From Bradymonadia bacterium (lineage in GTDB: Bacteria > Myxococcota_A > Bradymonadia > UBA7976 > UBA1532): 64,000 bases of DNA. Position numbers and translations under genes: made by a program. Numbering within the stretch: the stretch's first letter is position 1; each line of letters starts with the position of its first letter. This document shows positions 7,019 through 12,452 of this stretch, piece after piece. The notes under the pieces were generated by a model. It was not told the DNA's origin. It searched no databases and saw only the letters and a list, made by a program, of their open reading frames with translations. The stretch is from NCBI GenBank assembly GCA_046290225.1, contig JBKAGE010000053.1, positions 7,834-71,833 of the forward strand. The letters run 5' to 3'.

Positions 7019-7471
7019 TCAATCGAGGGCAGCGCCTCCGATCTCCATCGCCTCCAGAAGCGCCATCACCCCACCCTGTAAATCACCATTTGTCAGCCGC
7101 TCGTGGGCTTCGAATTGAAGGTGCCGGCGCCAGGGCAGCCCTGCGAGGGCCTTCGCCGCCGCCATCGGGTCCCCGAGGGCGTGCCGAGCGGCGGCGCAGA
7201 GCCATTGGTGATAGCGCTGCAGGCGGGCTGGGGGTGGGTTCAGGCACGGCGAGCTCTCCAAGATCACCACCGCGTGCTGAGGATCCCCCAGCTTGAGCCA
7301 GCAGATGGCCAGCGCCAGCGCCGGGCGCGGATCAACAGGATCATCGTCGAAGGCTGCCTGGAAGGATTCCCGGGCAGAGGGCCAGAGTCCTCGCGCCGCT
7401 TCGTCGAGGCCGTCGCAGAAGGCGGCGTTGACTGTGGCGGGTGCTGGCCCGTGCGCCGAAGAGGAGGTCAA
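7019..7471 (-). CDS. Hypothetical protein, possibly TPR-like helical. Co-transcribed downstream of the pentapeptide-repeat gene.
   Basis: 150 aa. Its start overlaps the stop of the upstream minus-strand gene (ATGA coupling at 7468-7471). No motif recognised. Confidence 0.4.
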   Translation of the reverse strand: MTSSSAHGPAPATVNAAFCDGLDEAARGLWPSARESFQAAFDDDPVDPRPALALAICWLKLGDPQHAVVILESSPCLNPPPARLQRYHQWLCAAARHALGDPMAAAKALAGLPWRRHLQFEAHERLTNGDLQGGVMALLEAMEIGGAALD

Positions 7472-8667
7472 TCGAACTCCAGGTTGTGGAAGCGGCGGCT
7501 CAGAGGGCGATCGGACTTCTTGTCGTCCTTGCTCTCGGCCGCGGCGGGGGCCGCCGGCTGAGCGGAGGCTGCCGGCGCTGCGGGGGCACGGGCAGGGGCC
7601 CGGGCCGGGGTCGCCGGCGCCGCGCGGGGCGGTGTCGATGGGCGGGGTGGCTCGGAGGCGCGGTCCATGCTCACCTCGCGGGGGCCATCAGCGTCGACGT
7701 AGACTTTCTGGCCATCGACCTGAAACAGATCGAGCTCAGGGATGGTGAGGGTGCGCTTGAGGTGCGCCATGAGCCCGGGGAAGTCGAGGCCCGCGAGATC
7801 ACCGCCGAGGGCCTGATCAGGTGTGCCTGTGGGCAGGCCCTGCCCCAGCACGTACTCTTCGATGAGGGTGCGCAGCACCCGGCGCAGACGCTCGGGGGTC
7901 CACCCCTGATCTGCGCCGAGATCTTCGTAGATGCGCTCCCAGTCCTGCTCCGACATCGATGGACTCCCAGGGCCTCGGGTGCGGGGGAACAACCCCTCCG
8001 GCGGGGCGTCGCCCCAGTCTACCCGTGCCGTCTGACATTGGATCAAGGCTGCACCTTCCAGGGCCACATCGTCAAAATGAGCGCCGGAGAGATCACACCC
8101 CACCAGCAACGCGCCGGTGAGATCAGCCCCATAGAGATTGGCCGATTTGAGGTTGCACCCCACCAGCAGCGCCCCGCGAAGGTCGATGCGGGTGAGGGAG
8201 CTGCCCCCCAGCATGGGGTTGGCGAAGGACACGCCCACGAGGGTGGCGTCCTGCAACTCGAGGCCGTCGGTGTGGCCGCCCTTCACGTCTACCCTGGACC
8301 AGCGTGCCCCGGGCATGTGGGCCCCGGTGAGGTTGCAGTCTTCCACGGTGACCTGACGCAGGGTGATCTCGGCGGCGTTGATCTTGAACAGCGTGCAGTG
8401 ACTCAGGCCCGAGCGAGTGATCTCCGCAGACATCAAATCAGCGCGGCCGAGGTCGCAGCGGTGCAGCTGTGCGCCCCCTTCGATGCGGGCGTGATTGAGG
8501 CGCGCTTCCGCGAGACCCACCTGGCTCAGGGTGCACGCTTGCAGTACGACACCCTCGAGGGCGCGGCCCCGAAGATCTTGTTCTTGGATCCGGCCCCCGG
8601 CCACGATGGCACCGGGACCACTCAAGCGTCGATCAGAACCCATAGACACAGCGTGTGACATCCTCAT
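7468..8667 (-). CDS. Pentapeptide-repeat protein with a Pro/Ala-rich linker and a C-terminal RRFHNLEFD tail.
   Basis: About 200 aa of A(D/N)LXX pentapeptide repeats (ANLYGADLTGALLVGCDLSGAHF..). It ends ..SRRFHNLEFD*, which matches the C-terminus of the AAA+ ATPase at 10866..12452. Divergent from the FHA operon. Confidence 0.75.
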   Translation of the reverse strand: MRMSHAVSMGSDRRLSGPGAIVAGGRIQEQDLRGRALEGVVLQACTLSQVGLAEARLNHARIEGGAQLHRCDLGRADLMSAEITRSGLSHCTLFKINAAEITLRQVTVEDCNLTGAHMPGARWSRVDVKGGHTDGLELQDATLVGVSFANPMLGGSSLTRIDLRGALLVGCNLKSANLYGADLTGALLVGCDLSGAHFDDVALEGAALIQCQTARVDWGDAPPEGLFPRTRGPGSPSMSEQDWERIYEDLGADQGWTPERLRRVLRTLIEEYVLGQGLPTGTPDQALGGDLAGLDFPGLMAHLKRTLTIPELDLFQVDGQKVYVDADGPREVSMDRASEPPRPSTPPRAAPATPARAPARAPAAPAASAQPAAPAAAESKDDKKSDRPLSRRFHNLEFD

Positions 8668-10869: not shown

Positions 10870-12452
10870 ACACCCTCGACAGCGCCACCGAGCTCGAACA
10901 CCTCATCAAAGCCCGCTATCCGATCATCTACATCAACAGCAGTGAAGAGGAGCGGGTCGAGCATGCCCTGAAGCACATTCAGGACACGCTCAATGCTCGG
11001 AGCAGCAGCCACCGCAAGCTGCTGCACTGGTCGATCACCGAGGGCTTCGTCGGTGACGAGCACCACGACGTCCGTGATCCGATCAAGGCGCTGGAGTTCT
11101 TGATCCGGTACGAAGAGAGCGCCCTCTTCGTGTTCCGCGATTTTCACCCGTACCTCAAAGATCCCGTGGTGGTGCGTCGACTGCGCGACTGCCACCGGGC
11201 CCTCAAGGAGTCCGACAAGCTGCGCACGGTGGTGCTCTTGAGCCCCTCGCTCAAGGTGCCCATCGAGATCGAGAAGGAGATGGCGGTCATCGACTTCGCC
11301 TTGCCTGATCGATCAGAGCTGCGCACCCTCGTCGACGACCTGTGCGACGCCTACCAGCTCGCTCACGACGAAGACGCCCGCGACCGCTTCACCGAGGCCG
11401 CTCTGGGTCTGGCCTACGAAGAGGCCAGCAACGTGCTCGCCAAGAGCATGGTGCGTCATCGCGATCTCGACATGGGCACGATCCTCAGCGAGAAGAAGGC
11501 CATCATCCGCAAGTCGGGGCTGCTCGAGTATTACGAGAGCGACAACAAGTTCACCGACGTCGGCGGCCTGACTGTGCTCAAAGAGTGGCTGCTCAAGCGC
11601 CACGGCGCCTTCACCCAGAAGGCCCGCGAGTTCGGCCTGCCGGTGCCCAAGGGCATCCTGCTCATCGGCATCCCCGGTTGTGGTAAGTCGCTCACCGCCA
11701 AGGCCGTGGGCGCCTTGTGGCAGATGCCTCTGCTCCGCCTCGACGTGGGCAAGGTCTTCAGCGGCCTCGTGGGCTCTTCAGAGGAGAACATCCGCAAGGC
11801 CATCGCCACCGCCGAGGCCGTGGCCCCTGCCATCTTGTGGCTCGACGAGCTTGAGAAGGGCTTCAGCGGGGTGCAGTCCTCGGGGCAGAGCGACGCCGGC
11901 ACCACGGCGCGCGTCTTCGGCAGCTTCATCACCTGGCTGCAGGAGAAGACCAGCTCGGTCTTCGTCATCGCCACGGCCAACGACGTGTCGATGCTGCCCC
12001 CCGAGCTGTTGCGCAAGGGGCGTTTCGACGAGATCTTCTTCGTCGACATGCCCACCGAAGACGAGCGCCGCGACATCGTGCAGATTCACCTGCAGAAGAA
12101 GGATCGCGATCCCGCCACCTTCGACGTCGACGCACTGGCCCGGGCCTCTCGGGGCTTCAGCGGCGCCGAGCTCGAGCAGGCGGTGGTGAGCGCGCTGTAC
12201 GACGCCTTCTTCGAGGAGGCCGAGCTGAGCACCGAGCGGCTGCACAAAGCCTGCGAAGAGGTGATCCCGCTCAGCCTCACCATGAAAGAGAAGATCGACG
12301 ACCTGCGAGAGTGGGCCCAGAGCCGCGCCCGGAGTGCCAGCGGGCACCCCATCGGCGCCCCAGCTCTGGAAGAGGCCGCCGCAGCAGGTGAAGACAAGCC
12401 CGCCGGGGCGTCGACCGCCCGGTTCAGAAATCTCGAGCTGGAGGGAGACTGA
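10866..12452 (+). CDS. AAA+ ATPase, Ycf46-like architecture: ~250-aa N-terminal domain plus one C-terminal AAA module.
   Basis: Walker [16 protein letters not shown]. Walker [12 protein letters not shown]. Sensor/arginine finger ..[31 protein letters not shown] overlap with the FHA gene stop. C-terminus ..[11 protein letters not shown]. Confidence 0.85.

Follow-up and report, generated by a model that had tools for sequence, protein, structure and literature searches.

In a 64,000-nucleotide stretch of a Bradymonadia bacterium contig (GenBank assembly GCA_046290225.1, contig JBKAGE010000053.1, positions 7,834 to 71,833 of the forward strand; hereafter the window), an AAA+ ATPase and a divergently encoded pentapeptide-repeat protein end in nearly the same peptide. 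Our analysis indicates that this tail is very probably a selected and functional recognition motif, common to a motor, the ATPase, and to a partner protein. On the partner, the tail belongs not to the pentapeptide fold but to a separate module, termed X here, that lacks annotation.

The minus-strand open reading frame (ORF) at 7468-8667(-) encodes 399 residues ending in ..DRPLSRRFHNLEFD*, and the AAA+ ORF at 10866-12452(+) encodes 528 residues; the last letters of the two proteins are ..LEFD and ..LELEGD, respectively. Six-frame translation of the window yields exactly two copies of the pattern RF.NLE, both at the stops of these two genes (7477-7494(-), two residues before the stop, and 12420-12437(+), four residues before the stop), as compared with the 0.008 copies expected from the amino-acid composition of the window. 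The near-identical C-terminal peptide that the initial annotation had reported for these genes is thus real, and a chance origin of the paired tails is excluded. As the synonymous codons differ between the two tails (CGG TTC AGA AAT CTC GAG CTG in the ATPase and CGC TTC CAC AAC CTG GAG TTC in the partner), the similarity is kept at the protein level. Recent gene conversion, or a DNA copy between the tails, was considered and ruled out for the same reason.

Scanning one genome per species, we found 80 loci with AAA+ orthologues at 55-79% identity, from Myxococcota (including Bradymonadia, Nannocystaceae and Haliangiales), Spirochaetota, Planctomycetota, Nitrospinota, Thermodesulfobacteriota and Chthonomonadales. 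The ATPase tail is kept in about 65 of these loci, in five or more phyla. It reads [RG]-F-R-N-L-E-[LM] followed by 0-4 residues in the closest clade, while more distant Myxococcota and the other phyla present a variable, often acidic linker that leads to ..[RK]-[KQ]-L-E-[ILM], at most two residues from the C-terminus. More broadly, [RK]-x-L-E-[ILM] describes the ending of the orthologues in Myxococcota, Spirochaetota, Planctomycetota and Nitrospinota. In the Chthonomonadaceae orthologues and in L066, the ATPase C-termini are unrelated to the tail. A wider search, among 1.84 billion cluster representatives, showed that the tail is frequent in the Ycf46-like family but not universal: the motif expression fits about 13% of the 149 top-ranking Ycf46-like proteins (42-60% identity), and several others carry near-variants of it.

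The specificity of the motif was assessed in all six-frame ORFs of at least 80 residues from the window and the 80 loci (7031 ORFs, 1.46 million residues). The pattern F..L[ED]Φ was found within four residues of a stop in 57 cases, all of them in AAA+ or X proteins; from how often the pattern occurs internally, about two would be expected. The motif is hence not common at C-termini, and none was seen outside these two families, a statement that applies to the window and related loci rather than to whole genomes. When the back-translated pattern R-F-x-x-L-E-Φ-D-stop was searched for in metagenomes, 11 places were found, 10 of which are X proteins. Nine of these 10 adjoin AAA, DUF1257, DUF2997, pentapeptide, FHA or PP2C genes, and the other (L089) lies on a contig that is cut short. 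The eleventh match is a 1.1-kb fragment (L086) whose ORF at 51-239 has two copies of the motif, ..AWFRNLDFD.. and ..KRFRNLEMD*; it hints at proteins with tandem docking motifs, on a contig too short for a family to be called.

The tail variants of motor and partner co-vary within loci. With both tails put in register on the L-E-Φ core, six loci of the closest clade have Arg before Phe in both proteins and another six have Gly there in both, and L005 carries R-L on the ATPase and R-F on the partner. When all systems are considered, both tails have Glu as the core acid in 33 loci and Asp in five independent lineages, and three cases are mixed (Fisher p 1.6e-4, or 0.013 with loci collapsed to clades). 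One could nonetheless regard the similarity as functionless, either a chance match or a duplicated C-terminal remnant, given that the motif is short and that its minimal core, [LI][ED]Φ, is low in information. We find this hardly credible in view of the 0.008 copies expected in the window, the differing synonymous codons, the co-variation of the tails and the conservation of the motif over phylum-level distances at which the flanking linkers are not conserved. The motif ties the divergent gene to the operon, as the initial annotation had proposed; tail conservation in orthologues, on which that proposal depended, was found for both proteins and across phyla.

The X module and other tail-bearing partners

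When all ORFs of the loci were scanned for the C-terminal motif, a tail-bearing second protein was found in about 35 loci. What these partners have in common is a ~90-residue X domain and, after it, a linker rich in Pro/Ala that varies greatly in length and leads to the terminal R-F-x-x-L-E-Φ-[DN]. The X domain contains two conserved blocks, ..LLR.LI.EYV.. and DF..LI..LKR....PEL.LF.VDG..V.V. The initial annotation had seen one tail on two unrelated folds; the shared tail stands, but its carrier on the partner side is, from sequence comparison, the X module rather than the pentapeptide fold. The minus-strand protein of the window (PPR-X) does belong to the pentapeptide-repeat family (Pentapeptide E 3.3e-22 and Pentapeptide_4 E 8e-16, residues ~27-218), and its tail-bearing C-terminal 160 residues lie outside the pentapeptide domain. 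It scores far below the cut-offs of the DNA-mimicking Qnr and MfpA families (NCBIfam Qnr 46.9 bits, cut-off 240; MfpA 40, cut-off 360). PPR-X is thus a fusion of two modules, and X a new domain family that lacks annotation.

The arrangement of X relative to the pentapeptide domain differs between lineages. X is fused behind the pentapeptide domain in the window, in a 71%-identical orthologue (P0284) and in distant Myxococcota, while in several close relatives (e.g., L002 and L011) it is a separate, translationally coupled gene that follows the pentapeptide gene directly and overlaps it; fusion and fission have therefore recurred. In Spirochaetota, Planctomycetota and Haliangiales, X is a stand-alone gene of 115-210 residues, and loci of the Planctomycetota type have the gene order X-AAA-DUF1257-DUF2997-pentapeptide.

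Throughout these arrangements the tail is retained, and none of the X homologues that we recovered lacks it. Among 21 aligned X proteins (A1), it is the best-conserved segment, with F and L invariant and E at 90% or more, and in another alignment (A5) its R, F, L and E are all invariant. All 14 database homologues found with an X profile are unnamed, have no Pfam domain and carry the tail at their end. The C-terminal residue of the partner is D, N or E in all 21+14+11 sequences. A search with the whole PPR-X protein returned mostly generic pentapeptide proteins and a single true orthologue. The X domain itself gave no Pfam match at E<=1 and no relative in the PDB, and the idea that it is homologous to DUF2997 or DUF1257 was rejected (hhalign probability <2%). 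An AlphaFold2 (AF2) model of the X fragment was moderate, with a mean predicted local distance difference test (pLDDT) value of 59, and thus too weak for a fold search; it shows helices and a hairpin at residues 4-89, with linker and tail unstructured and undocked.

Independent and unrelated partner families also carry the tail of the local ATPase. On a B. cereus megaplasmid, the AAA+ protein ends in ..GRTIDF* and an upstream membrane-anchored helix-hairpin-helix (HhH) protein in ..GRMIDF*; on a Paenarthrobacter plasmid, the AAA+ protein ends in ..GGRRIDF* and a homologous membrane HhH protein, two genes downstream, in ..GGGRTLDL*. A phage-like contig (L095) pairs an AAA+ protein ending in ..RSRQLDV* with a DUF6744 protein ending in ..SRFDMLDMDGDEE*, and in L092 it is the N-terminus of a TPR protein, MSRFARLEFE, that resembles the tail of the adjoining AAA+ protein, ..RRRIEF*. 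A pair on a Pseudanabaena plasmid is only suggestive (AAA+ ..QQFVPLQLDIRS*, WD40 protein ..RQQFDIDIEDS*). DUF2997 is annotated in all five of these loci, and most of them have DUF1257 or a gene of DUF1257 size; by Pfam, DUF1257 is weak in B. cereus (E 0.017) and absent in Paenarthrobacter and L092, and no such gene was called in L095. The cyanobacterial ATPase homologues seen were plasmid-borne (40-44% identity), and those at 42-44% identity end in ..FVPLQLDIR[SQ]*.

Several plasmid and phage loci presented further features. On a Pseudanabaena galeata plasmid (L102, 589-6533), the genes follow the order GrpE, Hsp70-family, DUF1257, ATP-binding protein, hypothetical, DUF2997 and AAA, an arrangement that links the module to a dedicated Hsp70 system. 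A small 4Fe-4S or radical-SAM-like gene is repeatedly found beside AAA-DUF2997 on plasmids of Bacillus, Paenarthrobacter and Treponema, as well as on two metagenome contigs (L103 3092-3733, L104 3185-3811, L101 4357-4965, L092 3450-4271 and L097 7575-8207), with none in the window. Mycobacterium phage Firecracker (L108) encodes an AAA-ATPase, gp100 (34% identity), ending in ..KVRVLDL*, together with gp96 (..HRFSQLEH*) and gp99 (..GYALDFEEVV*); the genes lie at 3902-5602, 5694-6494 and 7200-7649, and the neighbours have no Pfam matches. Firecracker may carry a phage counterpart of the shared-tail system, and its host is tractable. Finally, Treponema succinifaciens plasmid pTRESU01 (L109, 20088-21512) encodes a 55%-identical AAA+ protein with the tail ..VRKLEM*, set among VgrG/Pvc8 and baseplate-V cargo islands of a contractile injection system.

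Candidate readers of the tail

The ATPase has a classical AAA module (PF00004 E 1.6e-28 at residues 264-394, AAA_lid_3 at 419-454 and the P-loop GIPGCGKS), the closest solved sequences of which are the D2 domains of Cdc48/p97 (E 6e-53). It also has the hallmarks of a Ycf46-like protein, namely a length of ~500 residues, a single active AAA domain and linkage to DUF1257 and DUF2997; the order AAA-DUF1257-DUF2997 recurs in about 55 loci, and the JGI name of the orthologues is 'SpoVK/Ycf46/Vps4 family'. The AF2 model, built from 146 aligned sequences, has a mean pLDDT of 93 (about 97 in the N-terminal half). With Foldseek, the whole chain aligns over ~550 columns to D1-D2 of p97, Cdc48, Rix7, Drg1 and NVL (best E 2e-24, template-modelling score up to 0.63), and the protein is thus predicted to resemble a D1-D2 tandem of the p97/Cdc48 type, with both domains represented. 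The chain, however, begins at the D1-like domain, with neither the N domain nor a recognizable nucleotide-binding D1 of p97-type proteins, and it falls well short of the NCBIfam CDC48 model (TIGR01243, 110 bits, cut-off 803). As Pfam finds no AAA signature in residues 1-220, the sole AAA domain being that at 264-394, the activity of the D1-like half is doubtful. From residue ~495 onward the pLDDT falls to ~50, and the model thus shows no docking of the tail in cis. Among Ycf46-like proteins we also noted fusions of the AAA+ module to Ser/Thr protein kinases, a TerD domain or a trypsin-like peptidase, and inteins inside the AAA module of several of these proteins (P0181, P0207, P0212, P0132, P0203, P0124, P0202 and P0256); the kinase fusions fit the FHA and PP2C genes of the Myxococcota loci.

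From the conservation, specificity and co-variation of the tail, its predicted disorder and the co-occurrence of genes, we infer that the motif docks, and to what. In the reading that we favor, tentatively and at a little less than even confidence, the tail is a short linear docking motif by which motor and partner bind one receptor, most probably made of DUF2997 and DUF1257. The core of the motif would be [RK]-x-[LI]-[ED]-Φ, with R-F-x-x-L-E-Φ-D as the full partner form, presented at the end of a disordered linker. The motor would be a Ycf46-like AAA+ protein, a tandem like D1-D2 of p97/Cdc48 without the N domain, and the exchangeable partner would be, in the window, X fused to a pentapeptide-repeat domain. 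Both tails would plug into equivalent sites of the receptor, probably an oligomer of the two small co-encoded proteins, which would in this way join motor to partner, and the FHA, PP2C and TPR genes of Myxococcota might add phospho-dependent regulation. Both tails are unstructured in the AF2 models (pLDDT about 50), which fits a peptide that acts in trans. A more specific form of this proposal, which we regard as possible but on the unlikely side, is that DUF2997 and DUF1257 build a homo- or hetero-oligomeric hub whose identical sockets receive, through [RK]x[LI][ED]Φ, the motor and a set of interchangeable targeting subunits. These subunits might include X with or without the pentapeptide DNA mimic, the membrane HhH DNA-binding protein, DUF6744 and possibly TPR or WD40 proteins.

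The small DUF proteins, one of the possible readers named in the initial annotation, remain the best candidate by co-occurrence. In the 66 informative loci, DUF2997 lies within the available flank in 52 of the 54 loci with a canonical tail and in 3 of the 12 others (Fisher p 3e-7). Five of these 12 still end in LEΦ (L025, L028, L030, L052 and L054), three of the five with DUF2997 nearby, while the seven truly tail-less loci lack DUF1257, DUF2997 and X altogether. DUF1257 adjoins the ATPase gene in most tail-bearing loci, and both families are absent near the tail-less orthologues of Chthonomonadaceae and L066. Similarly, among distant homologues, DUF2997 adjoins all three tail-bearing genes (P0126, P0257 and P0141), while neither DUF2997 nor DUF1257 is found in the available sequence around the tail-less P0121, P0129, P0150 and P0153.

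Several points weigh against the docking reading. Only about 13% of the 149 wider-family representatives match the motif, and the tail-less loci represent few independent lineages. P0144 has both DUF1257 and DUF2997 yet ends in ..SKTRKQV, with no canonical tail; conversely, L020 has the tail with no DUF genes within 10-20 kb, and in L109 both families are missing within 20 kb of the tail-bearing AAA+ gene. A search for co-varying columns found none in DUF2997 that discriminates E-type from D-type tails, and the receptor is assigned by gene co-occurrence only. In addition, the tail leaves the ring at the D2 face and not at the face of substrate entry of p97 rings, so that a substrate-adaptor role is not obvious for a hub placed there.

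The main alternative is the ATPase ring itself. The AAA+ ring would then be the receptor, the partner an SspB-like adaptor or a substrate tethered by its tail, and the ATPase's own tail an autoinhibitory or competing pseudo-ligand, or a latch between subunits or rings. The X module, with its folded domain, disordered linker and conserved terminal peptide, has the architecture of SspB, and the motif carriers are diverse (X, the HhH membrane protein and DUF6744), just as p97 and ClpX cofactors share ATPase-binding motifs; the T. succinifaciens AAA+ protein, moreover, keeps its tail without DUF genes in the surrounding 20 kb. We nonetheless judge this alternative possible but on the unlikely side, as the monomer model (146 sequences) docks the tail nowhere on the ATPase (pLDDT about 50), as a motor that bears the peptide of its own ligands is accounted for less economically and as, in tail-less orthologues, not only the partners but also the DUF genes are missing.

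Two further readers had been suggested in the initial annotation, namely the FHA protein and a protease. The locus-specific FHA protein could recognize a phosphorylated Ser/Thr upstream of the motif, or the small TPR protein could bind the tail by analogy with EEVD-TPR pairs. FHA, PP2C and TPR genes are indeed syntenic in Myxococcota or in the closest clade, Ser/Thr often precedes the motif in Myxococcota (..STSKRF.., ..STARF..) and Ser/Thr-kinase fusions to this AAA family exist. The FHA protein is, however, encoded in 44 of the 66 informative loci and missing in five of the seven non-Myxococcota loci with both tails, and tails occur in Spirochaetota, Planctomycetota, Bacillota and Actinomycetota loci with no FHA, PP2C or TPR gene nearby. 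FHA domains prefer pThr, and the window partner has Ser, not Thr, before the motif. We therefore consider such readers improbable. As FHA, PP2C and TPR are confined to Myxococcota or to the closest clade while the tails reach far beyond, their phyletic pattern excludes them as general readers; FHA and TPR proteins are at most lineage-specific regulators.

Alternatively, the tail could be a degron or processing signal for a housekeeping protease (ClpXP, Lon or Tsp/Ctp) that co-regulates the abundance of both proteins, and its C-terminal position on a disordered linker does recall ssrA-like tags. Known C-terminal degrons require a non-polar extreme C-terminus, such as LAA-COOH of ssrA-like tags. 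Here, the last residue of the partner is always Asp, Asn or Glu, and in the ATPase 0-4 variable residues follow the motif, so that the distance to the carboxylate varies. The motif is also confined to system components in the sampled DNA, its co-variation within loci across phyla would not be expected if a conserved housekeeping protease were the reader, and the neighbourhoods examined show no conserved protease gene. A degron is thus very unlikely.

The two DUF families themselves presented some features worth recording. DUF1257 orthologues (alignment A4) begin with an invariant Met-Ser-His, followed by F/I/L and T, which the Pfam model, starting only at residue 20, does not cover; a free N-terminus that has His as residue 2 or 3 might serve in metal binding or catalysis. 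In 22 aligned DUF2997 orthologues (A6), there is one invariant Cys and a fixed Gly pattern (I..DG....V.G..G..C). A resemblance of DUF1257 to BMC-H-like shell proteins, seen with a single sequence (phmmer E 5e-4, although no stretch passed), was rejected when a profile of 22 orthologues gave E 0.2.

Layout of the locus

The features of the locus are listed in Table 1. The divergent layout described in the initial annotation holds, with the FHA gene lying between the two tail-bearing genes and a spacer of ~100 bp separating it from the minus-strand gene. This divergent arrangement of PPR-X and the operon recurs in Myxococcota loci L001-L051, while homologues of the TPR protein are found only in L001-L017, the closest clade. 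The FHA gene overlaps the start of the AAA gene (8770-10869 and 10866). Both linkers are variable among orthologues, in length and composition for PPR-X and in length and sequence for the ATPase. The two DUF families score well above their Pfam gathering scores (DUF1257 91.1 vs 22.2 bits; DUF2997 70.9 vs 24.1 bits).

Table 1 Features of the tail-bearing locus, in window coordinates.
Feature	Position	Strand	Basis or remark
PP2C-type Ser/Thr phosphatase	6227..7009	+	Pfam PP2C_2 E 1.4e-14; accessory gene of Myxococcota, syntenic in Myxococcota loci
Small TPR protein, directly downstream of the PPR-X gene	7019..7471	-	Pfam TPR_19 E 2e-5
Partner tail RRFHNLEFD, residues 391-399 of PPR-X	7471..7497	-	Stop at 7468-7470
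Pro/Ala-rich linker, predicted disordered, residues 332-390	7498..7674	-	Low complexity; AF2 pLDDT about 42-55, no secondary structure
X domain, residues ~239-331, predicted helices and beta-hairpin	7675..7953	-	Conserved block ..LLR.LI.EYV..//DF..L..LKR....PEL.LF.VDG..V.V
Pentapeptide-repeat beta-helix domain, residues ~27-218	8014..8589	-	Pfam PF00805 E 3e-22, PF13599, PF13576
Divergent intergenic region between the PPR-X gene and the FHA-AAA-DUF1257-DUF2997 operon	8668..8769	.	ORF coordinates
FHA domain and long coiled-coil protein, first gene of the operon	8770..10869	+	Pfam FHA E 2.7e-20
AAA+ N-terminal half, residues 1-220, alpha/beta	10866..11525	+	Model superposes on the D1 ring of p97/Cdc48; no Pfam AAA match
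Active AAA module, lid and C-terminal helices, residues 221-490	11526..12335	+	Pfam AAA E 1.6e-28, AAA_lid_3
Flexible linker from AAA+ body to tail, residues 491-517	12336..12416	+	AF2 pLDDT falls from 88 to about 50
AAA+ tail, residues 518-528	12417..12449	+	Contains the RF.NLE copy
DUF1257 (Ycf35-type), candidate receptor component	12452..12847	+	Pfam PF06868 E 6e-26
DUF2997, candidate receptor component, most constant neighbour	12844..13044	+	Pfam PF11211 E 8e-20

Downstream of DUF2997 lies an ORF of 877 residues (13049-15682) that is Ala/Glu-rich, strongly acidic and of low complexity, with no Pfam match. It is followed by an ORF of 189 residues (15679-16248), homologues of which occupy the same position in the closest clade, and then by RNase E (16565-20476). 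The C-terminal half of the latter is very long and rich in Arg/Ala/Glu repeats such as PAKPARTRRTRKTAAQKAAEAAAEAPAE, and the catalytic part of the enzyme contains RFGLLEM, a near-match to the tail motif that arose by chance. A comparison with defence-system libraries returned a generic AAA similarity to IetA and nothing else.

Comparison with known systems

That unrelated proteins dock through a common C-terminal peptide is a known principle. In the HbYX/GQYL systems (PAN, Rpt, archaeal Cdc48 and Blm10; mycobacterial Mpa and Bpa/PafE), an AAA+ ring and a non-homologous, ATP-independent protein carry the same C-terminal peptide for the same receptor. Bpa was found through the GQYL tail that it has in common with Mpa, together with a phyletic distribution equal to that of the receptor (PMC4254994). 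The motif described here, in contrast, has no Tyr and does not follow the Hydrophobic-Tyr-X pattern, nor is it fixed at the extreme C-terminus, as tails in orthologues end in ..LEI, ..LEMV or ..LEMD. The neighbourhoods showed no 20S proteasome genes, and the candidate receptor is a pair of small DUF proteins.

Hsp70 and Hsp90 carry acidic-hydrophobic EEVD tails after a disordered linker and are bridged by a multi-site TPR hub (Hop/Sti1, CHIP). The likeness lies in a C-terminal peptide on a disordered linker that is common to two unrelated proteins. The peptides differ, however (RFxxLEΦ as opposed to EEVD-COOH), and only the closest clade has an adjoining TPR gene. The C-terminal tail of p97/Cdc48 (..DDLYG) is bound by PUB/PUL cofactors, and our ATPase is similarly predicted to have a D1-D2-type body and, at its C-terminus, a disordered tail that ends in a putative docking motif. 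Unlike p97/Cdc48, it has no N-terminal double-psi-barrel, its D1-like half has no Pfam AAA match and the motif is another one; and unlike p97 cofactors, the partner bears the ATPase's own peptide. In SspB, a folded domain is followed by a long flexible linker and a C-terminal peptide (the XB tail) that tethers it to ClpX. There, the ATPase has no such motif and the peptide is received by the N domain of ClpX, a domain without counterpart in our system. As none of the motifs or receptors of these cases is present, the system would work like them without belonging to any of them.

The same three families, Ycf46, Ycf35 (DUF1257) and DUF2997, are found in cyanobacteria and red-lineage plastids. 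DUF1257 is Ycf35, and a DUF2997-ycf35 cluster has been noted in cyanobacteria (PMC4284462). Ycf46 was described as a stress-induced, KaiC-interacting ATPase, with no description of its mechanism (bioRxiv 10.1101/2025.07.21.665879), and the three genes have been treated as uncharacterised and stress-linked (PMC4284462; bioRxiv 10.1101/2025.07.21.665879). In the literature on DUF1257, DUF2997, Ycf46, slr0374 and the combination of pentapeptide, FHA and AAA genes, we found no description of the tail motif or of an X partner. Our cyanobacterial comparison is based on the plasmid-borne homologues. The motif and the system are thus new, while the principle of a shared docking tail is not. Ycf46, DUF1257 and DUF2997 range over plastids, cyanobacteria, Myxococcota, Spirochaetota, Bacillota, Actinomycetota and phages with no known mechanism, and the co-varying tail of a motor and its variable partners offers a cheap and concrete experimental handle on this widespread, uncharacterised family. 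Should DUF2997 and DUF1257 indeed form a hub, they would be part of an unrecognised modular protein-remodelling machine found on chromosomes, plasmids and phages of many phyla, and the tail would give the first mechanistic handle on the conserved ycf46/ycf35 genes of plastids and cyanobacteria.

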